Assembly: GCA_964013405.1 (NCBI GenBank)
Contig: CAXGWI010000074.1
Coordinates: forward strand, 1 to 16,621
Source: an uncultured Myxococcales bacterium
GTDB lineage: Bacteria; Myxococcota; UBA4151
Direction of reading: 5' to 3'
Length of the DNA stretch: 16,621 nt
Under the pieces are notes generated by a model. It searched no databases. It was not told the origin of the DNA and saw only the letters and a program-made list of their open reading frames with translations. Below are positions 605 through 16,621 of this stretch, in pieces. A program made the position numbers and the translations under genes. The first letter of the stretch is position 1. The number at the start of each line of letters is the position of its first letter.

Positions 605-606
605 CA

Positions 607-2850
607 CTACTCCTTGGTGAGGTCCATCCCGCCGGGATACGCGTAACTGACATCATTGCTGTACGCATAGACGAGGATCCCGAAGGGCTGTCCGGTCAAG
701 TCGAGGATATTGTGCTGTCCCGACCCCAACAAGACCGTGGAGCGATACCATGGACTGCTGCCGATCCGGGCGGCGTCTTCGATGAGAAAGGGGGTGCGGC
801 CCCGGTCGCCCATCTCTAAGTCGTTCACGCCGACCCCGTCGAGCTCGAGAATCGCACCGCCGCTGTGGATGATGGTCACGTACTGCACCGCATAGGTTTC
901 CGGCGTGAGGAAGGTGTATTCGGATCGGTACTGAGCGGTGGGCGGGATGGCCATCATCGAGGGATCGCCGGAATTGGGTGGCGGGTAAGAGAGAACGCCA
1001 CAGTTGGCGTCGCCCGTCGTACAGCCTGAACTGATGAACTGGGTCATGGCGAATTTACCAGTGCCCGTGGCTTGAAAGTCCTGTTTCGTGCCAAATTCAC
1101 ACCACTCGCCGGGGCCAAGGATCAGGGTGTCCCCCTCGGCCAGATCCAGGCAACCGTAGAGGCCACCCTTGATGGGGCCTAGACTCGCGATGCCCCGAAG
1201 CGGCGGATCAAAGGTGATCTCCGTCGCTTCCGAGGCCATCAGTCGGTAATAATTGGCTTCTGCCCGGGTGTTCGCCCGCCAGACGGTGTGGGCGCCCACG
1301 TAACGGTTGCGCCAGGTTTCCACGGGGAGATTCACCGTCTCAAGGTGATCGCAGGCAAGATAGCCCTCGGGCACGTAGGCGCAGAGATGGCCTCCGAAGA
1401 CGCCGATCTCTTCACTAGCGAGCACTTCGACGCCGGTGAGATCGGCTCGCATTGGGTCGGGATCAGCAACGCTCATGATGGTGAGCACATCGTAGGGATC
1501 GACGGTGACAAAGAGGCTGTCACCCTCCTCTCGGGCCTCGGGGATCGTTTGGAAGACCCGGTTGCCCATGCGTAATTCGACCTCAGCACGACGCTCACCA
1601 CCGACGATGCTGATCCAGCCTTCGAGTCGCTCTGATTGCCCCTGAAAGGTCCAATCCACGTGGGTATGACTGAAGGTGTAATAGTGCCGGCCCTGGGAGC
1701 CGGCTGGCAACAGGATGGTCGCATCGTTGGTAAAGGTCCAGGAACAGCACAGTGGCTGAAATTGATAGGCGGTCACCGGTGCTGTGGTCACCACCTTATA
1801 GGCCCGAGGCGCCAGTTCCGATGTGTAGGTTGCTTGGCCGCCCTCAAGGATGGTGCCGGCGGATTTCGGCGGCAAAATCATGGTGAGTTGCCCCTGGGCT
1901 GGAAGCACCAAGTTCTGCGCTTCGCCCCGCAGTCGCATTTGTCGGCCGCCGGCGGTGCGGGATTCGGAATAGACCGTCTGGCTCGGTGCCCCCCCTCGAC
2001 CACCGATATTGCGTACGTTTTGGCTCGCCACCAACTGGACCACCTGATCTTCGCCATCGTCGCCACGCTCGGTGACGGTCACCTGGACTTCGTAGGCGTT
2101 GGGGTTGGCAAGGACGACGGCATAGGGGTGGTTTGCTTGGACCCGTTGGTTGTCGGAGTAGTTGGGTAGGTCGACGGCGAAAAAGGTACAGCCATCGTAG
2201 GAACTGCGTTCCCGGGCGAGCTCGCAGGCCGGAATGCAGATGCCACCGCTGCAACTCTCGCCGGGTTGGCATTCTGTGACACCGGTAAAGCTTAACTCAT
2301 CTTCCGCACAGACCCCGAAGCTCGTGTCATCGATGCAGGAGACTCGACCGGCATGGCAGAGGGTGCGGCGGCAGATGCCTTCGGCGCAAACCTCGTCCCG
2401 ATCGCAGGCTTCGGTCACCCAGCCCGAGCTCTGCTCATTACAGACTTCCCGGGCGCCATCCTCGTTACAGCGACGCTCACCAGCCTGGCAGATTGGATCC
2501 TCACACTCACCGATATTCACACAGCGTTGACCGTTCTCACAGGGAAGCTCTTCGAACCAACGCCCCCGATCTTCGCATTGTTCTCGGACCCCTTCGTCGT
2601 TGCAACGCAAGGCCCCGGCCACGCAGACCGGGTCCATGCACTCGCCGTCTTGGCAAAACTGACCGGCTCCACAGGGCAGATCGATGAAGCGTCCAAAGCT
2701 ACAGACTTGCGAGGTGCCGTCGTCTTTGCACTGCCGTTCATCGGCCGCACATTCGTTGGGTGGGCCCGAGCCAGCGTCGACTTCAGTCGGTGCTTCCGTT
2801 TGGGGGCAGGCGAGTATGAAGGCGAGAATCCAAAGACTGCGTTTTCTCAT
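607..2850 (-). CDS. Lipoprotein with 4 N-terminal 6-Cys repeats and a C-terminal IgGFc-binding-protein N-terminal-like domain
   Basis: 747 aa; signal MRKRSLWILAFILA-C15. Motifs typical of bacterial IgGFc_binding-domain proteins: GCTFFAVDLPN, TNDATILLP, DLTGVEVLASEEIGVFGGHLCAYVP, CDHLE..LPVETW, GDPSMMAIPPTAQYRSEYTFLTP and terminal SYAYPGG. Confidence 0.85.
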   Translation of the reverse strand: MRKRSLWILAFILACPQTEAPTEVDAGSGPPNECAADERQCKDDGTSQVCSFGRFIDLPCGAGQFCQDGECMDPVCVAGALRCNDEGVREQCEDRGRWFEELPCENGQRCVNIGECEDPICQAGERRCNEDGAREVCNEQSSGWVTEACDRDEVCAEGICRRTLCHAGRVSCIDDTSFGVCAEDELSFTGVTECQPGESCSGGICIPACELARERSSYDGCTFFAVDLPNYSDNQRVQANHPYAVVLANPNAYEVQVTVTERGDDGEDQVVQLVASQNVRNIGGRGGAPSQTVYSESRTAGGRQMRLRGEAQNLVLPAQGQLTMILPPKSAGTILEGGQATYTSELAPRAYKVVTTAPVTAYQFQPLCCSWTFTNDATILLPAGSQGRHYYTFSHTHVDWTFQGQSERLEGWISIVGGERRAEVELRMGNRVFQTIPEAREEGDSLFVTVDPYDVLTIMSVADPDPMRADLTGVEVLASEEIGVFGGHLCAYVPEGYLACDHLETVNLPVETWRNRYVGAHTVWRANTRAEANYYRLMASEATEITFDPPLRGIASLGPIKGGLYGCLDLAEGDTLILGPGEWCEFGTKQDFQATGTGKFAMTQFISSGCTTGDANCGVLSYPPPNSGDPSMMAIPPTAQYRSEYTFLTPETYAVQYVTIIHSGGAILELDGVGVNDLEMGDRGRTPFLIEDAARIGSSPWYRSTVLLGSGQHNILDLTGQPFGILVYAYSNDVSYAYPGGMDLTKE
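2236..2751 (-). repeat. Four tandem ~43-aa protein repeats C-x6-C-x8-C-x9/12-C-x5-C-x4/5-C
   Basis: CAADERQCKDDGTSQVC.., CVAGALRCNDEGVREQC.., CQAGERRCNEDGAREVC.., CHAGRVSCIDDTSFGVC.., read from the translation. Confidence 0.85.
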
Positions 2851-2862
2851 CGATTCTCCCGA

Positions 2863-4401
2863 TTATTTTTCGGCGATGCCTATGTCGGGTGCTGAGCCGA
2901 CGATGGGGATCCCCGCGATGGGGACCCCTCGATCCACAAGGTTAATGCCGCTGACGTTGCCCAGGTCGAGGGCCATGAAGCTGACGGCCTCGGCAAGGAT
3001 CGAGTCTGCTAAGCGCCCCCCATTGATCCAATCCAAGACACTGCTTTGCTCGTTGCCGACTCGCCCTTCGGCCGCGCCGCTACCCCGAGCGAAGGCGTTG
3101 TAGTCGAAGCGGTCGACGTTTTCCCATACCGTGAAGTTGAAACTTCGCACTTCATGCTCATGGAAGAGATTGTTGCGGACCTGAATGTCCCGGTTCTCAA
3201 ACTCGTCGCCGTGGATGGTGAGACCGCTGTCATATTGACTGATGATATTGTGGTAGACGCGGACGTCCTTAACCGTCGTGAGGACCAGGCCAGAGGTACG
3301 TGTGGCGAGCTGTGAGACCATATAATTGCGCATAACCAACACGTCGTTAGGTACCAGGGCTTCGGCCACGGCATCGTGCACGCCCTGACCGATCCAGAGG
3401 GCCCTTGTACACTCAGCTAGATGATTGTTTTCCAGTTGGGCATCGGTGACAGCCCCCTGAATCTTGATGCAAGCACTGTTTTCCCGTTGGAGATGGTTCC
3501 ACACCCGCAGCGCCTGGACTTCCACTTCGCGGCCGTCCCTGAGTTCGAGGCCGTCGTCGCCATTGTCATGGAAGCGACTACTGTGGATGCTCAGGTCGGT
3601 GGGCGCCCCTAGGGGGCGATCTTCGAAGCCGGCTGGGGGATCTCGATGGTTGGGGAGATGGAGGCCGTCGGCACTGTTGTCATGAACCCGTAGACCGGCC
3701 AGTTCCAAGCCGTCGACGTTGCCATAAATCCGGAGGCCATCGGCCGCATTGTCCCCATCCCCGTTGTTGTCGATCTGGGCGTTGATGAGCTTGGAACTTC
3801 GCAAGTCAGGACCGAAGGCGATGCCCACCCTTCGAGCACCTGTGGCCCGAAGGCCTGCCAGGATCACATGGCTCGCCGGGCTATTGCTGGCGATGCCGGC
3901 GACGTGGACTGCCCGGTCGACTCGAGACTCTGCATCGATGTCCAGCCCCTGAATCATCCAATGGGAGCGGTTCAAACGCAGGACTGGAACATCTTGGTCA
4001 TCCCCCGGCGTCAGTGTTGCGCCCGGCTCAGCAATCACTTGAATCGGCGCATCCTCTTCACCGCGCTGGCACAAATCATCGACGGCAAAATGACCGCGAA
4101 AGACACCTTTCTTGACCACCAAACGATCGCCAGGCTCCAGAGCTCGGAGGGCGACTTGAAGGTCCTCGAAGGGGGCCTCCTCGGTTCCGATTCCGCCAGG
4201 CACGCCCGCGGGGTCGGCATAGCGGGTCCGCAGGGGCTCCGGCAGGGTCGGGGAAGGCGTGGCTTCCATCGCGGGGAAGGCCTCCCCGAGCACCATGACC
4301 GTAGGCTCCTCAAGCAGCCGGTCCGCAGCCAGCGGAATGGTGCCCGTAGGCTCGACACACGCGAGTGTGAGAACGAGGATGATGCTGCTGCGTCCAGTCA
4401 T
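2863..4401 (-). CDS. Lipoprotein with right-handed parallel beta-helix (pectin-lyase-like fold) repeats
   Basis: 512 aa; signal MTGRSSIILVLTLA-C15. N-terminal cap ADPAG..GIGTEEAPFEDLQVAL..LEPGDRLVVKKG, PbH1-like repeats (IDNNGDG..DGLRI, VHDNSADGLHL, FHDNGDDGLEL, VYHNII, VRNNLF) and C-terminal GSAPDIG motif. GAGG upstream of the ATG. Confidence 0.85.
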   Translation of the reverse strand: MTGRSSIILVLTLACVEPTGTIPLAADRLLEEPTVMVLGEAFPAMEATPSPTLPEPLRTRYADPAGVPGGIGTEEAPFEDLQVALRALEPGDRLVVKKGVFRGHFAVDDLCQRGEEDAPIQVIAEPGATLTPGDDQDVPVLRLNRSHWMIQGLDIDAESRVDRAVHVAGIASNSPASHVILAGLRATGARRVGIAFGPDLRSSKLINAQIDNNGDGDNAADGLRIYGNVDGLELAGLRVHDNSADGLHLPNHRDPPAGFEDRPLGAPTDLSIHSSRFHDNGDDGLELRDGREVEVQALRVWNHLQRENSACIKIQGAVTDAQLENNHLAECTRALWIGQGVHDAVAEALVPNDVLVMRNYMVSQLATRTSGLVLTTVKDVRVYHNIISQYDSGLTIHGDEFENRDIQVRNNLFHEHEVRSFNFTVWENVDRFDYNAFARGSGAAEGRVGNEQSSVLDWINGGRLADSILAEAVSFMALDLGNVSGINLVDRGVPIAGIPIVGSAPDIGIAEK

Positions 4402-4461
4402 GATGATACCCTCGCCCCCAAGCAGCTTAGAACCCTACCGGTAGCAGGACAAGTTCAACAG

Positions 4462-4490
4462 TTGAGGGATCGAGCAGGAGGTGACAGAAT
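4462..4490 (+). promoter_or_regulatory. Putative sigma70-type promoter for the 4518 gene
   Basis: TTGAGG (4462-4467), 17-nt spacer, CAGAAT (4485-4490) preceded by TG at 4482-4483 (extended -10), within the 116-bp divergent intergenic region. Pattern match only. Confidence 0.3.
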
Positions 4491-4517
4491 ACCACCGCCT
4501 AAGGAAATGGAGTTGGC

Positions 4518-6392
4518 ATGCGCTCCCTGCTCTTTTTTTGTCTCATTTTGGCTGCATGTATTCCCGATGATAGCGGGATCGGTCCCGATGGGCGCCCCAC
4601 TGGGCTTTGTGTCGCTTCCCGCTTAGCCTGCCACGATAATATGGTGAAGCAGTGCACACCTGATGGTCAGCAGCGGGTCATCGTGACCCGTTGTGGCGAG
4701 GATCAGTACTGTTCCCAGGCTGCCTGCCATGATCGAATCTGCGAGCCTTATCTCCGTCGTTGTGACGAGGGCATTGTCTTACTTTGTGACCAGCGGGGGA
4801 GCCGGGAGTCAGCTCTGATCGATGGGGATTGCGCCGGGCTCGGGCTGCAGTGTGACGATGGGCGCTGTGTCCGCCAACCCTGTGACCCTGCTTGTGGTGA
4901 AGGGATGTATTGCGATGGCGAAGGCACTTGTCTCAATCAACAATGCCAGCCCATGGTTCGAGGTTGCGTCGAGAACAGCGTCAGGACCTGTAACCAGTGG
5001 GGTTCTGGTTACCTAGAGGAGCTCGACGAGGACTGTGGCGATCGGGCCCAATGCCTCGCAGACGCTTGTGTCCCCGTCGCCGGCGGTGATGCGGGCCCCC
5101 GCCCCGATGCCGGTGGTGGCAGTGGAGGTGGCTGTGCGAGCCATGAGGAGTGCCCGGTCCATCAAATTTGTAATGCCCATAGCCGGCAGTGCGAGAACCT
5201 GACGCCCCCGGCTTGCCGTGACAACACCCAATGCCCGCCAGGCCAATTTTGCGAGCGGACGCCTCAGCAGGAGGTGGGCCAATGCCAGTTTGGTCAGCCC
5301 CAGTGCCGGGAGGATGGGGATTGCGATGCCGGCCTGGTTTGTCAGCGGGGCCACTGCATCGAGGCCGGTAGCGGCGGTTGTACGACCGACGTTGAATGCG
5401 GTTCGGGTCGCATCTGTGTGGATGCAGCCTGTGTGGTTGGATGCCGCGGCGATGGGGACTGTGCCGAGGGGCATTTATGTCGGGATGGGGCCTGCGTTCC
5501 GAGTCAGGCCGAATGCACTCGACACAGCGATTGCGCTGCGGATCAGGCCTGCTTGAACAGTGCCTGCATTCGGCCTGTGACCCGACAAGGACAGGCCTGT
5601 GGGGCCGATGGAGACTGCGGCTGGGGCGAGCGCTGTTTCTCCTTTAACGAGCAAGCTGCGGTCTGCATGGGCACCTGCGGGACGGGAAGCGACTGCCCAG
5701 AGCGGAGTATCTGCATGGCGGCCTTGGGTGCCCGGCTCTGCGTTCCGGACACGGTGGCCTCACCCAATGGGGGACAGGCGACTCTGAACAATGGGGAAGC
5801 CTGCGAGCCCGCCGGTGCGACATTGTGCAAATCGGCCCTGTGCACGGGGACCCCGAGCACGTGTCGAGCCAATTGTGGCAGCGACCGGCATTGTCAGGGG
5901 CAACAGGTCTGTACCCATCTCAACCAGGGCAATGGTGAGACCGCTTACCTGCTCGATATCTGTGCTGATCCCGGCGAGTTTGGTCAGCGACCCGGTGCCA
6001 ACGGGCCGGGGGAAAACTGTGCGACGGGAGATGCATGTGCATCGGGCATTTGTTTGGATGGCAGTTGTCGGCAGCCATGTTGTACCAGTGGTGAATGCCC
6101 CAATCGACACATCTGTCGCCAAGAGCGGGTTCCCGTGCCTGGGGCCAGTGACTGGCAGGTCAATCTCTGCATCCCGGTACCACCGGCCTTTACCCTGGGG
6201 ACCTCCGTCGGGGGCGCCACCTGTGCGGTCGCCGGCGACTGTCGCAGCGGGATTTGCACTTCCGGTCGTTGTGTCGACGCCTGCTGTGGTCGCCGTGACT
6301 GTGCGGGCCTTGCCGCCTGTACCGCGAGTGACATGGGCCAAGGAGGCGACGCCCTGATGAACCTTTGTATTACGCCTGAGGTGCCGGGGTGA
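4518..6392 (+). CDS. Highly Cys-rich multi-repeat lipoprotein (no catalytic domain recognised)
   Basis: 624 aa; SD GGAG upstream; signal MRSLLFFCLILAA-C14; 82 Cys by manual count. Three 6-Cys repeats, a GDAGPRPDAGGG linker, about 8 C-x5-C-x5-C-xn-C repeats, then about 3 G..C..C.SG.C..C...C(C) modules. Confidence 0.88.
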   Translation: MRSLLFFCLILAACIPDDSGIGPDGRPTGLCVASRLACHDNMVKQCTPDGQQRVIVTRCGEDQYCSQAACHDRICEPYLRRCDEGIVLLCDQRGSRESALIDGDCAGLGLQCDDGRCVRQPCDPACGEGMYCDGEGTCLNQQCQPMVRGCVENSVRTCNQWGSGYLEELDEDCGDRAQCLADACVPVAGGDAGPRPDAGGGSGGGCASHEECPVHQICNAHSRQCENLTPPACRDNTQCPPGQFCERTPQQEVGQCQFGQPQCREDGDCDAGLVCQRGHCIEAGSGGCTTDVECGSGRICVDAACVVGCRGDGDCAEGHLCRDGACVPSQAECTRHSDCAADQACLNSACIRPVTRQGQACGADGDCGWGERCFSFNEQAAVCMGTCGTGSDCPERSICMAALGARLCVPDTVASPNGGQATLNNGEACEPAGATLCKSALCTGTPSTCRANCGSDRHCQGQQVCTHLNQGNGETAYLLDICADPGEFGQRPGANGPGENCATGDACASGICLDGSCRQPCCTSGECPNRHICRQERVPVPGASDWQVNLCIPVPPAFTLGTSVGGATCAVAGDCRSGICTSGRCVDACCGRRDCAGLAACTASDMGQGGDALMNLCITPEVPG

Positions 6393-6573
6393 TCGGGGGC
6401 GGACCGGAAACGGCGCCGAAGCCGGGGCAGGTCAAAACCGGCAACTGAGGGTATTTCGTCAGGCCGGGCATCGTCTTCGCCCGCTGACAGAGCAGGAAGC
6501 GTGAGCCCCGCCTATTTCCGATGAGGCGGGCGTGGACGCACTGGGCACAGAGGCCTAGTTCGGCAGGAGCCAC
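6370..6573 (-). CDS. Small hypothetical Cys4 protein (putative metal-binding)
   Basis: 67 aa: GLCAQCVHARLIGNRRGSRFLLC...KYPQLPVLTCPGF (C-x2-C-x16-C-x19-C). Resembles, from recall, a conserved small bacterial hypothetical family. The GTG start overlaps the 3' end of the upstream same-strand gene by 19 nt. Confidence 0.7.
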   Translation of the reverse strand: MAPAELGLCAQCVHARLIGNRRGSRFLLCQRAKTMPGLTKYPQLPVLTCPGFGAVSGPPPITPAPQA

Positions 6574-7487
6574 GGGATGACGCTCGCAAGGTCAGGGTGT
6601 TCGAAGGTAAACCCTCCGTCCAAGAGTCGCGTGGGCAGGGCACCGCAACTGGGAAGTAAAAGGTCATCGGCCACACCGCCGGTGACCAGTCGAAGCCCCC
6701 AGGCCGGCGCCGGGAGGAAACAGGGCCTACCCAACTGTTTGGCGAGCGCCCGGCTCAGGTCGATTTGGGCACAGGGCGTCGGTGCCGTCAGGTTCACCGG
6801 GCCTTCGATGGGGTGGTCGGCGAGAAAGATCATGGCTCGGCTTGCATCCAGTGCACTTAACCAAGCCCAAAGTTGATCGCCGGAACCGAGTCGCCCGCCC
6901 GCGCCCATTTTGATGGGCCCGAGCAATTTCTGGAAGGCCGGGGCGTCGGGGGCGAGCACCAAGCCAAGCCGAAGAAATGTCATGGAAGCACCGTGATCTC
7001 GAGCGGGTTCGGCGGCCGCTTCCCAGCGTTCACAGACCTCGCTCAGGAACATCGTTCCAGCCGGGCTCGCTTCGGTCACGGTTTCTTGGTCGCAGTCGCC
7101 GTAGTAGCCGACAGCGGAGGCCTGAAGCCATCTGGGTGGCGGTGCCTGACACGCGAGATAAGCAGCAACGAGACATTGGGTGGCCTTGAGCCGACTCTCC
7201 AGGACTCGTTCTCGGTGGGCCTGTCCGAGACGTCCATCAGCCAGACTCGAGCCGGCGAGGTTGACCAGAACGTCAGTCCCTTCAAGAGCATCCCGCAGGG
7301 GTTTCAAGCCACCGTTCTTGCCCTCGGCGTTCTCCTGGGGGTTCCAGCGCACCACGCGCTCGTTTTGCTCCGTCGATCGAAGCCCAGATCGGGAGAAGAT
7401 GGTGACGTCATGCCCTAAGGCCGCCAGGGCTTGCCGAAGATGGCGCCCAACGACACCGGAGGCGCCGGCGATAACCCAGTGACTCAC
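6555..7487 (-). CDS. TIGR01777/YfcH-family NAD(P)-dependent epimerase-like oxidoreductase (atypical SDR, DUF1731-type C-terminus)
   Basis: 310 aa; Rossmann IAGASGVVG, VLVNLAG, ESRLKAT, ASAVGYYG, FLSEVCERWE, LRLGLVL, GGRLGSGDQLWAW, GPVNLTAP, PTRLLDGGFTFEHP. GTGA overlap with the amidase stop. Confidence 0.93.
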   Translation of the reverse strand: MSHWVIAGASGVVGRHLRQALAALGHDVTIFSRSGLRSTEQNERVVRWNPQENAEGKNGGLKPLRDALEGTDVLVNLAGSSLADGRLGQAHRERVLESRLKATQCLVAAYLACQAPPPRWLQASAVGYYGDCDQETVTEASPAGTMFLSEVCERWEAAAEPARDHGASMTFLRLGLVLAPDAPAFQKLLGPIKMGAGGRLGSGDQLWAWLSALDASRAMIFLADHPIEGPVNLTAPTPCAQIDLSRALAKQLGRPCFLPAPAWGLRLVTGGVADDLLLPSCGALPTRLLDGGFTFEHPDLASVIPWLLPN

Positions 7488-9151
7488 GACAGGATGTCCA
7501 ATCGGTAGGCAGGCGGTTGGTGGGCTGTGGCCGCTTCGACGACCCGACCCATCTGCAGTAAGAGGGCTTCTTCATGGGCTCGACCCATCAACTGTAGTCC
7601 CACCGGTAGACCCTCGCTGTCATAGCCACAGGGAATCGAGAGGGCAGGCAGGCCAGTCAGGTTAGCAGGCTGCGCGTAGCGCATGATCGTCTGAAGCAGG
7701 GTGAGGTCGCTGTCACCCCGGGCGAGCGCATCGGGGCGAATGGGCGGGGCCGTCCGTCCGGTTGTGGGGCTGGCGATCACATCACATTGGCCCAGGGCCC
7801 GGTGAAAGTGTGCGTTCAACCGGGGCCGCAGGCGTTGGGCGTGTACATAGTCTTTGGCGGTGAGCTCCCCGGCGATGTTGAGGTTGAGCCGGTTGTCGAG
7901 GCCGTAGGACTGCCGTTGCTGGGGCCACCAGGGCGCTTGGCCCGCCAAAATCTCGCTCGCGATGGTGGTGAAATGACAAAGACGTAAGAGGTCGAGTTCG
8001 GGGATTTCGACCTCGATAACCTCGGCGCCGGCTTGCTCGAGGTGGGAGACGCCGGCTCGGGCCCAGGTCACGACGGCCTCATCGGCGTCCTCGAACCAGG
8101 GCGTAAAGACGCCGACCTTCAGGCCGCTGAGGTCTCCCTGATTCAATTGGTCCAAGTGCGGCGCCGGTTGATCCAGGCCAGGGGGGTAGAGGGGGTCTGG
8201 GCCGGCCATCAGACCGTAGGCTAGGGCGACGTCGGCAACACTGGCACCGAGGGGTCCGACGTGTCCCACACTCCAGCAAAAGGGCAGGGCACCGTGTTCA
8301 CTGACTCGGGCAAAGGTGGGCTTCAGCCCAACGATGCCATTAAAGGCCGCGGGAATCCGGATCGAGCCGCCGCCATCTGCACCCACCGCAATTGGACAAA
8401 ACCCGCTCGCGACGGCCGCGGCGCTGCCACCGGAAGAGCCGCCCACGCAGTGGCCCGCGTTGTAGGGGTTTCGGGGCGTGCCATGGATCGGGTTGATGCC
8501 GGTCACCCCCATGCCGATCTCATGGAGATTCGTTTTGCCGATGAGCAGGGCACCCGCAGCCCGCAAGCGGGCCACCGCAGTGGCATCCTGCTTGGCGGGG
8601 CCATCGGCCATGAAGGCGGTACCGCCCGTCGTTGGGTAACCGGCTTGGTGGAGTTCGTCTTTAACCGCAACGGGGACGCCCTCCAGCAGGCTCCGGGGCC
8701 GGCCCTCACTCAGCCGCATGGCGCTTTCGGTGGCCTGGGCGATGACGTCTTCTGCTTGCTGGGCGATGAAGGTGGGTCTTGCGGGGTTGCTCTTGGCTTC
8801 TTCTTGGCCGGCGAGAAGAACGGCTTTGGCCACGTCGAGCGGCGTACATCGACCGCTTCGGTAGGCCTGGGCGAAGTCGACAACACCGGGCCAGGTGGCC
8901 GGTCTCGGGACTTCGGCGACCGTTTCGAGCACGATGGGCTCACCTTTGGCTCGAGGGCCAGGCTCGAGCGGGTCGGGGAGGCAACTGGCTTCCGCCGCCT
9001 CGGCTTCGTGAAAGACTGCAAATCCCAGGTCGGCGATGAGCTTCTTGCGCAGCCACCGGCCGATGATCGGCGCCTCGACCAGAAACACGATCAACCGCAG
9101 CAACCAGCCAGCACTCCGGGGGGCCGGCGTGGTTTTTAGATCATAAGTCAT
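7484..9151 (-). CDS. Amidase-signature family enzyme, fatty acid amide hydrolase (plant FAAH)-like
   Basis: 555 aa; Ser-cisSer-Lys triad motifs GVPVAVKDE, GGSSGGSAAAVASG and GADGGGSIRIPAAFNGIVGLKPT; GKTNLHEIG; C-terminal ANLTGLPALSIPCG..GLPVGLQLMG. SD GGAG upstream. Confidence 0.93.
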   Translation of the reverse strand: MTYDLKTTPAPRSAGWLLRLIVFLVEAPIIGRWLRKKLIADLGFAVFHEAEAAEASCLPDPLEPGPRAKGEPIVLETVAEVPRPATWPGVVDFAQAYRSGRCTPLDVAKAVLLAGQEEAKSNPARPTFIAQQAEDVIAQATESAMRLSEGRPRSLLEGVPVAVKDELHQAGYPTTGGTAFMADGPAKQDATAVARLRAAGALLIGKTNLHEIGMGVTGINPIHGTPRNPYNAGHCVGGSSGGSAAAVASGFCPIAVGADGGGSIRIPAAFNGIVGLKPTFARVSEHGALPFCWSVGHVGPLGASVADVALAYGLMAGPDPLYPPGLDQPAPHLDQLNQGDLSGLKVGVFTPWFEDADEAVVTWARAGVSHLEQAGAEVIEVEIPELDLLRLCHFTTIASEILAGQAPWWPQQRQSYGLDNRLNLNIAGELTAKDYVHAQRLRPRLNAHFHRALGQCDVIASPTTGRTAPPIRPDALARGDSDLTLLQTIMRYAQPANLTGLPALSIPCGYDSEGLPVGLQLMGRAHEEALLLQMGRVVEAATAHQPPAYRLDILS

Positions 9152-9193
9152 GGTCCAACTCCCTTGTTGTTGCTTCTACGCAAGCCGCGAAAC

Positions 9194-9208
9194 GGTCAAG
9201 CCTTGACC
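9194..9208. promoter_or_regulatory. Inverted repeat GGTCAAG-C-CTTGACC in the divergent promoter region (candidate operator)
   Basis: Perfect 7-bp arms with a 1-nt spacer, near the middle of the 99-bp gap between the amidase and PCD starts. Extended -10-like TGGTAGGCT at 9228-9236 on the + strand. Confidence 0.4.
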
Positions 9209-9250
9209 CTTGCCTCGCGCCCACGGATGGTAGGCTCACGGAGAAGTCGA

Positions 9251-9601
9251 ATGGCTGATGGAGAAGCCTGCGCGCTGGCGGAAAAGGACTGTGTTCCCTG
9301 TCGTGGCGGCGTGCCGCCCATGGGGGCAGAGGAGATCGCCGAGTATCTACCCCAATTGGATCCAAGCTGGTCGATCAACGAGGCCGGTCATCTAGAGCGT
9401 CAGTTCGAGACCGAGGACTTCGCCCAAGCCCTTGCCTTGGCAAATGCCCTCGGGGCCATCGCTGAGGCCCAATGGCACCATCCCGACTTGACGGTGCGTT
9501 GGGGAAGCGTGGGCGTCGAGATTTGGACCCACAAGATCAATGGTCTCACCGAATCGGATTTCGTGCTCGCAGCTCGCTTCGACCGGGCGGCTGAGGCGTG
9601 A
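9251..9601 (+). CDS. phhB: Pterin-4-alpha-carbinolamine dehydratase (4a-hydroxytetrahydrobiopterin dehydratase, COG2154)
   Basis: 116 aa from ATG 9251 (SD GGAG at 9240-9243). LAEKDCVPCRGGVPP N-terminus; EAQWHHPDLTVRWGSVGVEIWTHKINGLTESDF matches the E-x3-H-H-P-x5-W-x9-H-x8-D catalytic motif. Confidence 0.95.
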   Translation: MADGEACALAEKDCVPCRGGVPPMGAEEIAEYLPQLDPSWSINEAGHLERQFETEDFAQALALANALGAIAEAQWHHPDLTVRWGSVGVEIWTHKINGLTESDFVLAARFDRAAEA

Positions 9602-11148
9602 GACCATCAGGGGACGCAGATCAGCGCTTCGGCTTTTTGATCGACAACCGGAAGTGCATCGGCTGCCACGCATGCTCCACGGCGTGTAAATCGGAAAATG
9701 AGGTCCCCCTCGGTGTGAACCGAACCTGGGTCAAAGGGGTGGAGACCGGCGTTTTTCCCAATGTGACCCGGCATTTTCAGGTCACCCGGTGTAACCACTG
9801 CGAAAATCCACCTTGTGTCGCCATTTGCCCGGTGACGGCCATGTACCAACGGGAAGACGGGATCGTGGAGTTCGACGGTCGCGAGTGCATCGGCTGCAAG
9901 GCCTGTCTCCAAGCCTGCCCCTACGATGCGATTCACGTGGATCCGAACACGGGAACCGCGGCCAAATGTCATTATTGCGCCCACCGGACGGATATCGGTC
10001 TTGAGCCGGCCTGCGTGGTCGTCTGTCCAGAGCACGCTATTTTAGCTGGCGATCTCAACGACCCAGGCAGTGAAATTAGCCAGGTTCTTGCCCGGGAGCG
10101 GGTGACGGTACGGAAGCCAGAACAGGGCACAGCACCCAAGCTCTTCTACATTGAAGGCGAGGCGGTCAGTTTGAACCCCCAAGCCCTGGCTCTTGAGCCG
10201 ACCGGTGGAGTTTTTGCGGAACGAGGGGGGGACCAGTTGCCACCGGGGAGCGGGACCCCGGCCGCGCAAATGGCCCAAGTGGCGTTTAACGCCCAACATA
10301 AGGTGCCCTGGCATTGGCCCGTTCCCGCCTATCTCGTCACCAAGGCCGTTGCCGCAGGCCTGCCGATGGTCCTTGGGATCAGCTGGCTTTTCCTCAAGGT
10401 CCCCTTTCAGGGTGAGGTGGCGTGGTGGGCTAGTCTAATCGCCAGCGCATTTCTCGCGCTGACCGGCCTCTTGCTGGTCATCGATCTGGAACGCCCAGAG
10501 CGATTCTTGAAGATCCTTCTCAGGCCCCAGTGGCGTAGTTGGCTGGCCCGTGGCGCTTTTGTCATCATGGCTCAGACTGGGCTCTTGCTGGCTTGGGTGT
10601 TGCTGGAGGGCTGGGGCTCGCCGGACCTGGCGTCCACTTGGCGCTTTCCCCTCTTGGCCATTTTGCTGCCATCGAGTCTGCTGACTGCAATCTATACGGC
10701 CTTTCTCTTCGCCCAGGCCGAGGGGCGTGATCTCTGGCAGAGTCCGCTGGCTCCCTTTCACTTGGGCCTGCAAGCCTTGGTCATGGGGGCTTCCGTGGTC
10801 TTGATGCTGGGTCTCTTTGTCGACCTCGAGCCAAGCCTGCGTCACGGTATGGGTTGGCTTTTGGGCCTGTCCCTGCTGGCTGATTTGTTCATCACTCTGG
10901 TGGGGGAGTTCGGCACGCCCCATGCCAGTTCGGTGGCTTCGGCCGCGGCTCGGCTGATCGTCAAAGGGCCTTTCGCCGGGCTCTTTTGGGGGGGCGCCGT
11001 GACCCTGGGGCACTTGCTCCCCATGGGCTTGCTTCTGGTCTCATGCGAAGGGGCCTATGGCGCGGCAGCAGGGCTCGCTGCGGGCATCGGCCTTTACTGC
11101 TTTGAGCACGTCTGGGTCATGGCCCCCCAGCACGTGGCCAACAGTTAG
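9598..11148 (+). CDS. Fusion of a NrfC/PsrB/DmsB-type 4x[4Fe-4S] ferredoxin and a NrfD/PsrC-type membrane anchor (about 8 TM helices)
   Basis: 516 aa; four Cys groups CIGCHACSTAC, CNHCENPPCVAIC, CIGCKACLQAC and CHYC-x11-CVVVC; KPEQGTAPKLFY. Then NrfD hallmarks W.WPVPAYL, DLERPERF, SWLARGA, YTAFLF, W.SP and about 8 hydrophobic segments. GTG start overlaps the PCD stop (GTGA). Confidence 0.93.
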   Translation: MRPSGDADQRFGFLIDNRKCIGCHACSTACKSENEVPLGVNRTWVKGVETGVFPNVTRHFQVTRCNHCENPPCVAICPVTAMYQREDGIVEFDGRECIGCKACLQACPYDAIHVDPNTGTAAKCHYCAHRTDIGLEPACVVVCPEHAILAGDLNDPGSEISQVLARERVTVRKPEQGTAPKLFYIEGEAVSLNPQALALEPTGGVFAERGGDQLPPGSGTPAAQMAQVAFNAQHKVPWHWPVPAYLVTKAVAAGLPMVLGISWLFLKVPFQGEVAWWASLIASAFLALTGLLLVIDLERPERFLKILLRPQWRSWLARGAFVIMAQTGLLLAWVLLEGWGSPDLASTWRFPLLAILLPSSLLTAIYTAFLFAQAEGRDLWQSPLAPFHLGLQALVMGASVVLMLGLFVDLEPSLRHGMGWLLGLSLLADLFITLVGEFGTPHASSVASAAARLIVKGPFAGLFWGGAVTLGHLLPMGLLLVSCEGAYGAAAGLAAGIGLYCFEHVWVMAPQHVANS

Positions 11149-11157
11149 GAGGTCGAC

Positions 11158-14022
11158 GTGTCCTTGCTCGACTCCATGCTCGCTCTCTTGGGGAAGGTGC
11201 CCGTGAAGGGGATTCCAAGGGCAGCGGAAGCGCCCAGTTACTCCGAAGCCCAGCGGGAACCGAAGGTCATCGACAGCCAGCGACTCCCCGACGGGCGCTT
11301 GGCTGCCTATCCGCCGGAAGCTGACTGGGATGACTGGGTCGAATGGGATGCTCGTCGCTGGCCCGAGAAAGTGCCCAGGCATTACCGTTTGGTCCCCACG
11401 GTCTGCTTCAACTGTGAGAGTGCCTGTGGGCTGTTGGCCTATGTGGACAAATCCTCTTATGAGATCCGCAAATTTGAGGGCAACCCAGCCCATCCAGGGA
11501 GTCGAGGACGCAATTGTGCCAAAGGACCAGCGACCCTCAACCAAATCTACGACCCGGAACGAATCCTCTACCCGCTCAAGCGAGTAGGGGCTCGAGGGGA
11601 GGGCCAATGGCAGCGGGTTTCCTGGGACCAGGCCCTCGATGAAATCAGCGCCAAGATGGCGCAGAGCAAGCGCCAGCGAGACAATGGCATCGTCTATCAC
11701 GTGGGCCGGCCTGGTGAAGATGGCTACACCAATCGAGTGGTCCAGAGTTGGGGTATGGACGGGCACAACAGCCACACCAACATTTGCTCTGCTGCGGCGC
11801 GGGCCGGCTATGCCTTCTGGGGGGGCTTCGATCGTCCCAGTCCGGACTACGCAAATGCTCGAGCCATCCTGCTGATCTCGAGCCACCTGGAGACTGGGCA
11901 TTACTTTAATCCCCATGCCCAGCGCATTATGGAGGCCAAAGAGAAGGGGGCGAAGCTGATCACCCTCGACCCCCGCCTCTCCAATACCGCAAGCAAGTCC
12001 GATGTGTGGCTGCCCACGTGGCCGGGTTCGGAAGCCACCTTGCTGCTCGCCATCGCGAACGAACTCCTGCAGTCGGGTCGCTACGACCGAGAATTCTTGC
12101 GCCAATGGGTGAACTGGGAAGACGTCCTCGAGGCAGCACCGGAGCATATCACGTCCGTCGATTCGGCCGAGATTATCGCCGCGGCTGGCGGCGGCTTTGA
12201 AGCCTTCGAAGCCTTGCTGAAAGCCCTCTACGCCGAGTTCACCTTTGAGCGGGCCGCTGAGGAAGCTCAGGTGCCCGTGGCGCGCATTCGTGAAGCGGCG
12301 GAGATCATCGCCGATTGTGATGGTCGACTGGCAGCCCACAACTGGCGTGCCGCCTCCATGGGCAATCGGGGCGGGTGGCAGGTCGCCCGTTGTTTGTTCT
12401 TCCTCAACGTCCTCACCGGCAGCGTCGGGACCCGGGGCGGCACCAGCGCCAACAGTTGGAATAAGTTCAGCGCAAAGCCCTGGCACCAACCGCCCACCTT
12501 GGAGACCTGGAACGAACTCCACCTGCCCCATGAGTGGCCCTTCGCCATGTATGAGATGAGTTTCCTCCTGCCTCATTTCCTCGAGGAAGGCCGGGGCGAT
12601 ATCGATGTGTATTTCACCCGGGTCTACAACCCGTTGTGGATTAATCCGGACGGATTTTCCTGGATGCAGGCCCTGCGGGACGAGACCAAGATTCGTTGCC
12701 ATGTGGCCCTGACTCCCACGTGGAATGAGTCGGCTTGGTTCGCAGACTATGTCTTACCCATGGGGCATGCTGGCGAGCGCCACGACCTCATGAGTCAAGA
12801 GACCCATGCGGGGCAGTGGATCGCCTTTCGACAGCCGGTTCGGCGGGTTGCGATGGAAGCCGACGGGATCGAAGTGGGACGAACCTACGAGGCGAACCCG
12901 GGGGAGGTCTGGGAGGAAAACGAGTTTTGGATCGATTTGTCAGCCCGCATGGACCCCGATGGCACGCTCGGCGTCCGGGAGCATTTCATCAGCCCCTATC
13001 GCGCCGGCGAGATCATTACGGTGGAAGAGTATTATCGCTGGATCTTCGAAAACTCGGTGCCCGGCTTACCGGAGGCAGCCGCCCAACGGGGGCTTAGCCC
13101 CCTCGAGTACATGCGTCGTTACGGTGCCTTTGAGGTGAAATCGGACATCGTCCAACCGTTCGCGGTCGTTGAAGACGGTCAGCCCAAAGGCTTTGGGACG
13201 CCGAGCGGGAAACTGGAGTTCTTCTCGAAGACGCTGGCCCAATGGGGCTGGCCCGAACAGGACTATGTCATCCCTTGGCCCCTGCGAAGTCATGTACACC
13301 CACAAGAGATTCGTCGGGATCAGGGCGAGATGATCCTGTTGCCGAACTTCCGCTTGCCCACGCTGATCCACACCCGAAGTGCGAACTGCAAGTGGCTCTA
13401 TGAAATCAGTCACCGGAACCCCCTTTGGATGCACAGCGAGGATGCGGAGCGCTTGGCTTTGAAGTCCGGTGACTTGGCTCGAGTCGAGACAGAGATTGGT
13501 TACTTTGTCGCCAAAGTTTGGGTCACCGAAGGGATCAAGCCAGGCATCGTTGGCTTGAGCCATCACTTAGGACGCTGGCGTCTCAAGAGCGATGAAGGGC
13601 AGAATCGTTTCAGTTCGGCCGAGGCGGAGTTGGACACCGAGGACCCCCAGGCCCAACAACTGCGCTTTCGAGGGGGGGCGACGGCCTATGACACTTGGGA
13701 CCCAGACACTCAGAGGATCTGGTGGCAGGATGTGGGCGTTCACCAGAACCTGACCCATGCGGTGCAGCCGGACCCCATCTCCGGTGCCCACTGTTGGCTG
13801 CAGAAGGCCCTGAGCGTCGAGCCAGCCAGACCCGGTGATGCCTACGGTGATGTGGGCGTGGACCTCGAAAAATCCAAAGCGCTCTACAAGCGCTGGCATG
13901 CACTGACGCGCTCGGCCGTGGACCATAGCCCCGACGGCAGTCGGCGCCCTTATTGGTTGAAGCGGCCGCTGAAGCCGGTACCGGCCGCGTACCGCTTACC
14001 GGAGTCTCCTTTTGGGCGCTGA
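11158..14022 (+). CDS. Mo/W-bisPGD oxidoreductase catalytic subunit (DMSO reductase superfamily, Psr/Phs/Ttr/Arr-like, substrate unknown), no Tat signal
   Basis: 954 aa; SD AGGAGG before GTG. FS0 motif C83-x2-C-x3-C-x29-C120-A-K; PERILYPLKR, VSWDQALDEI; candidate Mo-ligand Cys210 in HNSHTNIC; DPRLSNTASKSD, ESAWFADYVLP, GTPSGKLEF; molybdopterin-dinucleotide-binding domain (HTRS..LWMHSEDAERLALKSGD..VTEGIKPG). Confidence 0.95.
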   Translation: MSLLDSMLALLGKVPVKGIPRAAEAPSYSEAQREPKVIDSQRLPDGRLAAYPPEADWDDWVEWDARRWPEKVPRHYRLVPTVCFNCESACGLLAYVDKSSYEIRKFEGNPAHPGSRGRNCAKGPATLNQIYDPERILYPLKRVGARGEGQWQRVSWDQALDEISAKMAQSKRQRDNGIVYHVGRPGEDGYTNRVVQSWGMDGHNSHTNICSAAARAGYAFWGGFDRPSPDYANARAILLISSHLETGHYFNPHAQRIMEAKEKGAKLITLDPRLSNTASKSDVWLPTWPGSEATLLLAIANELLQSGRYDREFLRQWVNWEDVLEAAPEHITSVDSAEIIAAAGGGFEAFEALLKALYAEFTFERAAEEAQVPVARIREAAEIIADCDGRLAAHNWRAASMGNRGGWQVARCLFFLNVLTGSVGTRGGTSANSWNKFSAKPWHQPPTLETWNELHLPHEWPFAMYEMSFLLPHFLEEGRGDIDVYFTRVYNPLWINPDGFSWMQALRDETKIRCHVALTPTWNESAWFADYVLPMGHAGERHDLMSQETHAGQWIAFRQPVRRVAMEADGIEVGRTYEANPGEVWEENEFWIDLSARMDPDGTLGVREHFISPYRAGEIITVEEYYRWIFENSVPGLPEAAAQRGLSPLEYMRRYGAFEVKSDIVQPFAVVEDGQPKGFGTPSGKLEFFSKTLAQWGWPEQDYVIPWPLRSHVHPQEIRRDQGEMILLPNFRLPTLIHTRSANCKWLYEISHRNPLWMHSEDAERLALKSGDLARVETEIGYFVAKVWVTEGIKPGIVGLSHHLGRWRLKSDEGQNRFSSAEAELDTEDPQAQQLRFRGGATAYDTWDPDTQRIWWQDVGVHQNLTHAVQPDPISGAHCWLQKALSVEPARPGDAYGDVGVDLEKSKALYKRWHALTRSAVDHSPDGSRRPYWLKRPLKPVPAAYRLPESPFGR

Positions 14023-14950
14023 TCTTGGGCAACTGCGTAGTCGGTCACAGAACTATGCTTTGCTGGCTCAGATCGTCGCCTCGGGTTTTGATGAAGCACT
14101 GTTGCCAATCCTACGGTTTTCACCGCGCTATGGTCCTGTCCTTCAGGGCCTTTCGGTCTCGGATCTGGCCCAGCGCCACCAGCGGATCTTTGGCTTCGAT
14201 ATCAGCCCGGTTGCCGGCGCGTTCTTGGATCCCAAGGGTCGTGTGGGTGGGCCGTTAAGCGATCAACTCACCGAGAACCTGATCGCCATCGGCGCAAAGC
14301 CAGATGCCGGTGATTTCGAGCCTGAAGCCCTGGCTGAGCAATTGGCCCTGCTCTCTCGCCTTGTGGGCGGCGAAGTCGAGGGCTGGGAAAATGAGCGACC
14401 CGAGGAGTGGCAGGGCTTCCAACTAGCCCAAGGGCTCGTCCTTCATCAGCACTTGATGCCGTGGTTGCCGCCCCTCGTGGTGGCGCTCTCGATGCAAAGC
14501 GAAAGGGCTTATCAAGTCCTGGGTGAAGAGATCTGGAGTTGTAGCCATGGGCACCTGGCCGATCTGGACCCTCGTTGTGATGGGTACCAGACATCTCAAC
14601 CAGCAGGCCGGGACGGGGGCGGTCTGCTGAGCGCACCTGAGACGGGACTCGCCCAGATTGCGGCTTTCCTCGTTCGACCGTTGGACAGTGGTTGGTATCT
14701 GAGTCGAAGTGACCTTGCCGCCGTCGCTGCCGAGGCTGGCGCTTCCCTCGCACCGGGCTCCCGCCAGCAGATGATGGAAGACCTGCTCTATGCCGTCGAG
14801 TTGGAATCGCTCGTTCAGACCTTGGCCGGAAAGGTTGATGCTTGGTCCGCAGCTTACGCCGCGTTGGCGGCGCCCAATCTGATCCGCCCATGGGGCCAAA
14901 GACTCCATGAGACTCGGCAGATGATCGCTGGGCTAGGCGCTGCTACCTAA
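14012..14950 (+). CDS. TorD/DmsD-like redox-enzyme maturation chaperone with C-terminal extension
   Basis: 312 aa; TTG start with GGAG at 14001-14004, overlapping the molybdoenzyme end by 11 nt. HQRIFGFDISPVAGAFL (P-x-x-S-x-Y/F-like motif), EPEALAEQLALLSRL (degenerate E-P-x-D-H) and LHQHLMPWLP; lies directly downstream of the molybdoenzyme. Confidence 0.78.
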   Translation: MGADLGQLRSRSQNYALLAQIVASGFDEALLPILRFSPRYGPVLQGLSVSDLAQRHQRIFGFDISPVAGAFLDPKGRVGGPLSDQLTENLIAIGAKPDAGDFEPEALAEQLALLSRLVGGEVEGWENERPEEWQGFQLAQGLVLHQHLMPWLPPLVVALSMQSERAYQVLGEEIWSCSHGHLADLDPRCDGYQTSQPAGRDGGGLLSAPETGLAQIAAFLVRPLDSGWYLSRSDLAAVAAEAGASLAPGSRQQMMEDLLYAVELESLVQTLAGKVDAWSAAYAALAAPNLIRPWGQRLHETRQMIAGLGAAT

Positions 14951-16620
14951 AGCGGCGGCGGCGGTCCTTGCTGGACATTGCTTCCCGGCGCGCTGGGACA
15001 AAGTTGTAATGACAGCTTACGGAGCGATTCTTTCAAATCAACACTACGGCAAAGCCTTCGGGCCTGGTCCAAAACAGGGGCTGCCTCCACCTCGCGATAT
15101 TCCTGCTCAGTGAGGAGTTTGGCGAGCGCTTGGATGTGGATGCGTGCCTCTTCGCTGTCTTCCAGCTGCACAGCCTGAATGATCAACCCGGTGTGGGCTC
15201 CTTGGAGGAGGAGCGGGTCCCCCCGTTCGATGTGCTTGCGTAGGATCTGTTCCGACCGATGGTCCGGACCCAAACTGACACGACTCCAAGTGAGTTGGAC
15301 CTCGATACGACGCATTCGGTTCTCTGCGAGACCACGGCGCCGGCACAGTCGAATCACATCCAGCAGCATCTCCACAGCCTCCTCGTGGCGCTCGTCCAGC
15401 CGGAGAAAGTTGGCTCTAACCGCCGTGGTCCGAAGCAGGTGGTCGGCAATGGTGTTGTCGGCGAACCGGGCGGTGATCTCTTGCTCCCAGGATTCGGCGG
15501 CGATGCGGTCGCCGGTGAAGAGATGGGAGAGGGTAAGCCCTTGGAGGACAGCCAACTGTAACAAGGGGCTGTCCTCTAAGGTTTCCAGGGTCTCCCAGGC
15601 TGCTGAGAAGAGGACCTGTGCCTGGGGTAGCTTGGCACGAAAGTAGGCACTCCAGGCCCGATTGCTATTGATCATGCCAAGCCACCGAGCATCCTCGGTT
15701 TCTTGGTAGGCCTTGGCATACCATTCGTCGGCCTCGCTCAGTCGAGCCTCCCGTTCCGCAACGACTCCCCGAGCATTCCACAGCGCCGTTCGCATTCGGG
15801 TGGGACCGACTTGGTCTTCAATCAGAAGCAGTGGATTTAAGGCCTCAAGCATGGCCTCTGGCCCAGCCCAGAGATCCAGATGACCCAAGCGTTCGTAGCC
15901 GATTTTCATGCGCACGGGATCGGAAGCAGGAATGTTCAGACGGGCCGCAGCCTGATCGGCCAGGCTGAGGAGGTCGAGGGCCCGATGGTGATCGAGTCGA
16001 ATGTGGGCTGATTGCCATGCACTCTCCAGCCATTGAACCGCTTCTTCGTATCGACCGGCCGCGATGAGGTGGCGGCCGATCGACTCGGCTTGGTCGCCGT
16101 TGAGCGGTCCGATCGAAGTCTGTTTGCAGGCGGCCCAGGCCTCGTGGATCTGGCGGCTTCGATTCGCCCGGATCGCCCGGTCACGTAAGCAGTCAGCGAG
16201 CATGCGGTGAGCGAAACGGTAGCCATCGTCTCTGGCCTTGAGGAGGGCTGCATTGACCAGCGCATCCAGCCATTGAGGCCGCGCCTCCAGGCCCAGGCGA
16301 CCACAGCAGAAAATCCAGTCACCATCATCGAAACTTGGACTTTCGCAGGCGGCCACTTCGAGGGCGAGGAGCGCAGCGGCGCTGTCCTCGCCAAGGATGA
16401 GTTCGATACGGACGATGAACAACTGTTCCAAGTTCGCTGGGACGCGAACCTCTGCTCCTGCTTTGAGTCGCAAGCCTTCGGGGCTTGGCTCGAGGAGACC
16501 GCGCTCCAGCCAGTCGCTGACCAGGTGGACAGCAAACAAGGGGCGCCCGCCCGAGGAAGCGACGACCTGTTCAGCAAGCACAGCGTCGAGATGGATGAGC
16601 TGGTCGAGGACTGCCCGAAT
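14947..16620 (-). CDS. C-terminal part of a STAND/AAA-ATPase-TPR protein (probably a Ser/Thr-kinase-ATPase-TPR regulator; N-terminus outside the window)
   Basis: Frame stays open from the right edge (IRAVLDQLIHLDAVLAEQVVASSGGRPLFAVHLVSDWLERGLL). GxP-like motif GGRPLF, VPANLEQL, winged-helix-type YRFAHRML, then helical TPR-like repeats (IGRHLIAAGRYEEAVQWLESA, ARLSEADEWYAKA). The kinase domain is inferred, not seen. Confidence 0.8.
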   Translation of the reverse strand: MRAVLDQLIHLDAVLAEQVVASSGGRPLFAVHLVSDWLERGLLEPSPEGLRLKAGAEVRVPANLEQLFIVRIELILGEDSAAALLALEVAACESPSFDDGDWIFCCGRLGLEARPQWLDALVNAALLKARDDGYRFAHRMLADCLRDRAIRANRSRQIHEAWAACKQTSIGPLNGDQAESIGRHLIAAGRYEEAVQWLESAWQSAHIRLDHHRALDLLSLADQAAARLNIPASDPVRMKIGYERLGHLDLWAGPEAMLEALNPLLLIEDQVGPTRMRTALWNARGVVAEREARLSEADEWYAKAYQETEDARWLGMINSNRAWSAYFRAKLPQAQVLFSAAWETLETLEDSPLLQLAVLQGLTLSHLFTGDRIAAESWEQEITARFADNTIADHLLRTTAVRANFLRLDERHEEAVEMLLDVIRLCRRRGLAENRMRRIEVQLTWSRVSLGPDHRSEQILRKHIERGDPLLLQGAHTGLIIQAVQLEDSEEARIHIQALAKLLTEQEYREVEAAPVLDQARRLCRSVDLKESLRKLSLQLCPSAPGSNVQQGPPPPL

Positions 16621-16621
16621 G

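Follow-up and report, generated by a model that had tools for sequence, protein, structure and literature searches.

A Tat-less molybdoenzyme with a fused FeS-NrfD subunit, predicted to be inverted in the membrane, as a candidate cytoplasmic sulfite:quinone oxidoreductase

A stretch of 16,621 nucleotides from an uncultured Myxococcales bacterium (GTDB lineage UBA4151; assembly GCA_964013405.1, contig CAXGWI010000074.1, positions 1 to 16,621; referred to here in its entirety as the window) encodes a predicted membrane-bound molybdoenzyme of two subunits. One joins an iron-sulfur (FeS) domain to an NrfD-type membrane anchor (fused subunit B-C, 9598..11148) and the other is the molybdenum (Mo) catalytic subunit (subunit A, 11158..14022), both on the plus strand and both at the positions given by an initial annotation of this DNA. 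The anchor's N-terminal face, with its quinone site, and the FeS domain are predicted to lie on the cytoplasmic side of the membrane, leaving NrfD inverted with respect to its counterparts in sister enzymes, a prediction that is well supported by loop charges and a structural model. Taken alone, the inward topology is in our judgment highly probable, and with moderate confidence we propose that this two-subunit complex acts as a cytoplasmic sulfite:quinone oxidoreductase bound to the membrane by an inverted NrfD anchor. The addition made by this analysis is controlled evidence for a flip of the anchor between two sister clades.

Absence of export signals and fusion of the FeS and NrfD domains

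The initial annotation had reported that neither subunit carries a twin-arginine translocation (Tat) leader, and re-examination of the two proteins agrees, as an arginine pair is absent from the first 60 residues of both. A Tat signal arising from an alternative start was also looked for; the in-frame codons open upstream number three for the Mo subunit and one for the FeS-NrfD subunit, so an alternative start cannot add a Tat leader to either. A motif search detected no Tat-like motif in any of 120 Mo-subunit homologues or in any of 20 further loci. In the fused subunit of the window, the first FeS cysteine is residue 20, as originally described, and the start codon lies 11-13 codons ahead of this cysteine in 57/67 loci. 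The acidic YPP..WDDW segment attributed to the N-terminus of the Mo subunit is indeed present at residues 51-64, but YPP..W also occurs in a Tat-bearing sister clade and is no marker of the Tat-less form.

The fused subunit is a 516-residue protein without a signal peptide in which Pfam places Fer4 (Fer4_11) first and NrfD second, at residues 232-480. Its tetra-[4Fe-4S] electron-transfer domain (residues 10-187; 9625..10158, plus strand) resembles PsrB, with a match to 2vpw_B at E 4e-56, and is delimited by the phmmer alignment to that chain and by invariant cysteine columns in the family alignment. The FeS region of 240 residues is joined straight to helix 1 of the NrfD domain (10291..11133, plus strand), which is predicted to have eight membrane helices and an N-in orientation. 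The fusion of the FeS domain to the N-terminus of NrfD, also part of the initial annotation, takes the form of a single open reading frame here and in 74/75 loci holding both domains. The exception among the 75 loci and one case among the 20 further loci owe their split to a frameshift or gap in the linker, and the apparently unfused members (L057 and L162) are accounted for in this way. Contigs from independent marine metagenomes read without gaps through the junction of FeS and NrfD (X5 record 18) and through that of B and A, including the start of A (X7 record 28), so this layout is not an assembly artefact.

A short amphipathic helix was observed at the N-terminus of many A subunits (window 11158-11230). 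Its amphipathic moment exceeded that of shuffled sequences at p<0.05 in 41/101 homologues but not in the protein of the window (p 0.33); such an N-terminus is reminiscent of the remnant signal peptide of NarG.

An anchor predicted to be inverted relative to that of a Tat-bearing sister clade

A search of 400 genomes of the host phylum yielded a second group of enzymes, at about 45% identity in A, encoded in B-C-A operons with a separate anchor. An RRxF(L/I)K leader is present on A in 12/12 loci fetched and in a frameshifted Sulfurovum gene, and the B subunits are without a leader of their own. This sister clade (Sulfurovum and myxobacteria; the main group of the Unk clade described below) has the same active-site residues in A and a related anchor in which the quinone-site Asp, Ser and Tyr-Thr also recur, but it is unlike the fused enzymes in its separate B and C subunits, its Tat leader on A, its reversed charge bias, and the presence of Lys instead of Glu at position 503 and Asn instead of Tyr at position 245 of the anchor. 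The sister operons (L121-L132 and L089, from 12 host-phylum genomes) are mostly followed by a polyferredoxin gene, and their active site is that of the inward form.

The AlphaFold model of the fusion contains eight membrane helices at residues 241-512, a block with a predicted local distance difference test (pLDDT) score of mostly 83-98, together with a low-confidence FeS domain. Foldseek matched this model to PsrC (2vpw_C, TM 0.76 on the target) and also to ActC. The hallmarks of NrfD/PsrC anchors are present, namely eight helices in two bundles and the quinone-site Tyr, Asp/His, Ser and Tyr-Thr, which are kept in the fused anchor as Y245, D296, S314, Y366 and T367 (positions and residue roles as listed for PsrC and NrfD in Table 2 of PMC8076601).

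Lysine and arginine (K/R) residues were counted using loop limits from the model helices and one joint alignment of fused and sister anchors, with a truncated (L029), a split (L057), a duplicate (L136) and a short (P0228) sequence left out. The sister anchors (n=120) were gathered by similarity to one of them, and their Tat-bearing context was checked in 12 loci plus Sulfurovum. Fused anchors have on average 10.9 K/R on the FeS side vs 1.9 on the opposite side, with an FeS-side excess in 76/76 (27/27 after thinning at 60% identity), whereas sister anchors have 5.0 vs 11.4, with an opposite-side excess in 120/120 (14/14 after the same thinning). The sister pattern is that of the N-out references (FeS side vs opposite side, 6 vs 11 in E. 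coli NrfD, 4 vs 7 in DmsC and 5 vs 10 in TtrC), and the fused pattern recurs in a SoeC-like anchor (13 vs 0) and in 15 further fused anchors (13-16 vs 0-3). For the window itself, the recount gives 10 on the FeS side vs 3 on the other, close to the earlier hand count of about 9 vs about 3. Under the positive-inside rule, this bias predicts a cytoplasmic position for the FeS face and quinone site. The original proposal that the A and B modules are cytoplasmic and that NrfD is N-in is thus upheld as a prediction by a controlled positive-inside comparison and an eight-helix model.

A residue difference within the membrane domain separates the same two clades. The helix-8 Arg of NrfD is replaced by Glu in 87% of fused anchors and by Lys in 99% of sister anchors; in the window this position is Glu503 of the fusion (11104-11106), and the SoeC-like anchor retains the Arg. 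Lys249, inside helix 1, is invariant in both groups.

In the tree of A subunits, the fused group, the sister group and a distant Tat-bearing protein (P0286) form one clade (support 100/100), next to which are the Tat-bearing enzymes of the Azoarcus type. The fused group is itself a clade in a quick tree (95), and the position of the root inside the Unk clade is not settled by the more careful tree of A or by that of the anchors. On the parsimonious reading, the flip would have started from a Tat-bearing, N-out ancestor. Sister enzymes with opposite anchor orientations would offer a direct test of how NrfD proteins couple quinone chemistry to proton movement, and of the way in which an entire membrane domain is turned over during evolution.

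An inverted anchor of this type has been anticipated for another complex. Calisto and Pereira (2021; PMC8076601) expected SoeC to be inverted, with its quinone site on the N side, and the available text of that paper mentions no fused form. SoeABC (Allochromatium vinosum, Aquifex aeolicus) is similar to the window's enzyme in being Tat-less and predicted to face the cytoplasm, in its anchor being expected to be inverted, and in the reaction proposed for it, but it is encoded by three genes in A-B-C order with a separate DmsC-type anchor, and its A subunit is about 25% identical. The stand-in for SoeABC in our comparisons was an Azospirillum A-B-C operon beside xsc (L166), identified by context and not a characterised enzyme; a search for SoeC among plasmids using DmsC found none among the 60 matches listed. 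Kinship of the fused A with SoeA was considered and set aside, as a single clade was rejected by the approximately unbiased (AU) test (p-AU 5.9e-5, with one long-branched stand-in), which puts the fused A outside the clade of SoeA and bacterial SreA. The anchor tree groups the fused anchors with the sister anchors (95/96) and SoeC with DmsC (99/97), and together with the AU rejection this indicates that the inversion seen here is probably independent of that of SoeC. The enzyme would work like SoeABC without being a member of it. PsrABC of Thermus thermophilus (PDB 2VPW) has the same three modules and folds but is exported, its anchor having the two termini as well as the quinone site on the P side according to PMC8076601, and its A subunit is 22% identical in structural alignment.

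Correspondence with the Unk Tat-less subgroup and PSRLC3

The enzyme of the window is a member of a family that has been described before. Duval et al. (2008; PMC2500031) defined an 'Unk' clade, one subgroup of which was Tat-less, was said to lack C, and had a B subunit of 60 kDa instead of 26 kDa. The supplement of that paper contains a second Unk block (Rubrobacter, Rhodococcus RHA1, Nocardioides, Chloroflexus, Roseiflexus and five Chlorobi), which we take as the Tat-less subgroup, and the text available gives this subgroup neither a topology nor a function. The likeness to the window's enzyme extends to B before A, no Tat leader on A, a B subunit of about 60 kDa, a Cys ligand to Mo, no separate C gene, and an overlap between the listed organisms (Rhodococcus RHA1, Chloroflexus, Roseiflexus, Chlorobi) and the groups holding the fused pair. 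The difference is that the paper reports the C anchor as absent, while the anchor is actually fused to B. The Rhodococcus RHA1 plasmid pRHL3 encodes a protein that is 55% identical and falls in the same clade, with the Azoarcus type outside (YP_709030 was not mapped directly to this locus), and since this locus carries the fused pair, the anchor of Duval et al. is fused and not missing.

Twelve loci from the green sulfur group hold the fused Tat-less pair, with TauE in 12/12, DsrE2 in 11/12 and dsrA within 20 kb in 5/12. They were named PSRLC3 by their match to its description, and we take PSRLC3 to be defined by the B-C fusion. PSRLC3 of green sulfur bacteria (Frigaard and Bryant 2008; Gregersen 2011, both as cited in PMC9324843, PMC6338057 and PMC5473276) is described in the available portions of those papers as 'two genes' (PMC5473276), as an 'alternative sulfite-oxidizing system' (PMC6338057) and as 'inferred to be sulfite oxidase' (PMC9324843), the last being an inference in print. 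The window's enzyme, which is a member of this group as well, has in common with it two genes, the fused Tat-less pair, 53-54% identity in A and 62-67% in the FeS domain, and its place in the same clade, and dsr genes lie near 5/12 of the green sulfur loci; it differs in having a non-phototrophic host with no dsrA match and a TorD-like gene behind A.

The novelty implied by the initial annotation is overstated, as the Tat-less subgroup to which the enzyme belongs has been in print since 2008 (PMC2500031), its green-sulfur-bacterial members are PSRLC3 (PMC9324843, PMC6338057), and an inverted SoeC has been proposed (PMC8076601). Its remark that no characterised substrate is known agrees with the literature found. 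A full-text literature search that left subscription journals mostly uncovered returned no enzyme assay and no topology statement for the fused family, and the available parts of PMC13332983, PMC5437934, PMC4464133, PMC6303296 and PMC8232776 contain no description of it.

The family is large and widely distributed. At least 8000 of the scored candidates are relatives of subunit A, with 60-76% identity in the best 120 (self match aside), and in GTDB genomes at least 596 stretches carry the family, from Chloroflexota, Rhodothermales, myxobacteria, Acidimicrobiia and Gemmatimonadota. Plasmid carriers include Thermomicrobium, Rhodococcus and haloarchaea, and the usual annotation is 'formate dehydrogenase' or a generic name. 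Among genomes related to a Rhodothermales carrier, 45/301 gave a match, and FMO was present in 4/5 of those tested; this is the green sulfur group from which the twelve loci above come. The A gene is in 0/5 genomes of the host's own family, so its distribution is patchy and the gene may have been acquired. The window adds one more member to the family and no new component.

Proposed sulfite oxidation and alternative functions

Subunit A is a protein of 954 residues with the Pfam domains Molybdop_Fe4S4, Molybdopterin and Molydop_binding of Mo/W-bis(pyranopterin guanine dinucleotide) enzymes. The FS0 cluster is bound by C83/C86/C90/C120, and the FS0 and FeS cysteines are intact. The predicted Mo ligand is C210, which falls at the position of the Cys ligand when aligned with PsrA and ArrA, and R184, H206, R215, D225, R226 and R397 are invariant in 45/45 fused and 5/5 sister A proteins, which suggests an anion pocket and similar chemistry in both clades. 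In fold, the confident model of A (pLDDT 89.7) comes closest to ArrA, acetylene hydratase and PsrA. The cut-off is not reached for any named NCBIfam family (TtrA 115 vs 1750, ArrA 111 vs 1600, PhsA 199 vs 694), and these scores, with the lack of a Tat export signal, place the enzyme outside Psr/Phs, Ttr and Arr. Four divergent relatives (P0242, P0246, P0249 and P0268) are apparently without the FS0 cysteines or the Mo-ligand Cys and are possibly inactive paralogues or decayed genes.

Flanking sequences were fetched for 88 fused loci. Any sulfur-handling gene is present in 51/88 of them and in 38/56 long loci, vs 1/12 sister loci. These include a persulfide-dioxygenase-like metallo-beta-lactamase (MBL) protein (18/88), an sHdr-type lipoate ligase or GcvH-like protein (19/88) and a flavoprotein resembling sulfide:quinone oxidoreductase (SQR) (9/88), with at least one of the persulfide-dioxygenase-like, sHdr-type lipoate or SQR-like genes in 43/88. 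The lipoate ligase and GcvH-like neighbours are presumably linked to sHdr. Transporters are represented by SulP (19/88) and YeeE-type proteins (9/88). The Rhodococcus locus contains TusA, DsrE and an MBL-rhodanese, and the Natrinema locus a rhodanese-MBL and TauE. These surroundings favour a sulfur substrate, and the green sulfur loci with TauE, DsrE2 and dsrA and the printed inference for PSRLC3 speak for sulfite oxidation. In the Anaerolineales loci (L001, L029-L068), a lipoate ligase, a GcvH-like protein and a CCG-domain membrane protein precede the pair, and a DUF2270 membrane protein follows it (20/88 loci).

Under the proposed function, sulfite would bind on the cytoplasmic side in a cationic pocket at Mo-Cys210 (R184, H206, R215, R226) and would be oxidised to sulfate at the Mo site in the cytoplasm. 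Electrons would then pass from Mo through FS0 and four further FeS clusters, five clusters in all, to quinone at the cytoplasmic face of the membrane. Since both half-reactions would take place on the cytoplasmic side, this step is expected to be electroneutral; energy conservation would fall to the reoxidation of quinol, for which alternative complex III is the likely enzyme in this host. With menaquinone as the acceptor, the oxidation of sulfite is downhill, and polysulfide reduction by menaquinol is uphill. The enzyme would serve to remove sulfite formed within the cell and to make use of it, a job like that of SoeABC carried out in a separate lineage. The host genome encodes MoeA, a MobA-like protein, TatC, alternative complex III, a YeeE pair and four rhodanese proteins.

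Several observations weigh against sulfite oxidation as the function. The literature search uncovered no activity assay for any family member, and the topology is derived from a charge rule and a model. Active-site residues are identical in the Tat-bearing sister clade (5/5), and Sulfurovum enzymes that are likely of this clade are called polysulfide reductases in the accessible text of PMC10045233. The active-site loop is unlike that of the SoeA-like protein (about 25% identity). The 88 loci are kin, so that their counts are not independent, and 18/56 long loci are without a sulfur marker, including 7/8 actinobacterial ones. The window has no sulfur neighbour. In the host genome (94% complete), the queries used found no persulfide dioxygenase, SQR, SulP, sHdr-type lipoate ligase, DsrA or Xsc, and no cysteine dioxygenase, sulfite reductase or 3'-phosphoadenosine 5'-phosphosulfate (PAPS) reductase; the best dioxygenase-like match resembles glyoxalase II. 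By these queries, no sulfite source is accounted for in the host. As a separate observation, no sulfite reductase or PAPS-reductase-family gene being found in this 94% complete genome suggests a dependence on reduced sulfur from food.

We regard it as rather unlikely that the same inward-facing complex works in the reductive direction, taking electrons from quinol to reduce polysulfide or persulfide in the cytoplasm and so removing sulfane sulfur. PsrA (2vpw_A) is the best match to A among solved structures, the sister clade has all tested active-site residues in common with the fused enzymes, and sulfane sulfur is what the rhodanese, TusA and DsrE neighbours act on. The available text of PMC2500031 lists Sulfurovum NBC37-1 under Unk, and a Sulfurovum-wide PsrA1 group, which would correspond to the sister clade, is reported in the accessible text of PMC10045233 as close to the sulfur-respiration enzyme of NBC37-1. 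However, the same text reports that psrA1B1C1 of Sulfurovum indicum was not significantly induced by sulfur reduction, and the neighbours of the fused pair are mostly oxidative-pathway genes with sulfate or sulfite transporters. Among the carriers, moreover, are green sulfur bacteria and a host that has alternative complex III. With both sites on the cytoplasmic side, proton-motive force would presumably be unable to drive the uphill step by the usual route.

Another anion as the substrate of the inward-facing enzyme, such as thiosulfate, tetrathionate, sulfinate or another organosulfur compound, or arsenate, is in our view unlikely. ArrA is the nearest fold, and R184, H206 and R215 align with ArrA active-site positions, whose residues we assume to have the roles usually given to them; the host and many actinobacterial carriers also have no known sulfite source nearby. 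Against this, arsenic-resistance markers were found in 0/88 fused loci (two of the three queries being partial genes), and the NCBIfam scores are far under the cut-off of every named family. Export by an unrecognised route into a periplasm-facing position like that of PsrABC is very improbable, for although the host has TatC and the leaderless sister B indicates that piggy-back export occurs in the lineage, this operon encodes no subunit with a Tat leader that could take the others along, the FeS region of 240 residues is joined directly to helix 1, and the charge bias is opposite to that of all N-out controls in 76/76 anchors.

Sulfite oxidation in the cytoplasm remains the function we favour, and it can be combined with the topology into a broader proposal that we advance tentatively. 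In this proposal the NrfD anchor flipped twice independently (in SoeABC and here), and one catalytic pocket came to be used on opposite membrane faces by sister clades with a Lys/Arg-to-Glu swap at a helix-8 gate. The inward form would then be a sulfite:quinone oxidoreductase that is common but wrongly annotated, and it would carry out the final step of sulfur oxidation in green sulfur bacteria, Chloroflexota, Rhodothermota, myxobacteria, actinobacteria and haloarchaea. Surveys have found persulfide dioxygenase and sHdr to be abundant and known sulfite dehydrogenases to be rare (PMC12345210). If the family oxidises sulfite, such surveys may miss the last step of sulfur oxidation.

Gene layout and surrounding sequence

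The fused subunit and subunit A lie within four same-strand open reading frames that abut or overlap. The first encodes a pterin-4a-carbinolamine dehydratase (9251..9601, plus strand; Pfam Pterin_4a) and overlaps the start of B-C. It was considered as a component of the system and rejected, being present in 0/80 related loci, and is a local neighbour only. A Shine-Dalgarno sequence, AGGAGG (11147..11152, plus strand), lies over the stop codon of B-C and 5 nucleotides ahead of the GTG start of the Mo subunit. The subunits are not always found together, as an orphan A subunit in another locus (L067:5839-8685) has no B-C gene in the 6 kb upstream, where ATP-binding cassette transporter genes are found instead.

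The fourth frame encodes a TorD/NarJ-like maturation protein (14012..14950, plus strand) that overlaps the end of A, with a weak Pfam match to Nitrate_red_del (E 7e-4) and a homologue in another locus (L074, E 6e-18). It is without the Asp-His pair that is kept in 28/30 homologues, and it has a conserved C-terminal extension of about 130 residues with no Pfam match. A complex prediction of this protein with the first 40 residues of A scored 0.00 and was used neither for nor against any reading. Elsewhere in the window, positions 1-6392 hold a cluster of large, Cys-rich and probably secreted lipoproteins (IgGFc-binding domain, beta-helix, DUF7107 repeats), which is unrelated to the molybdoenzyme.

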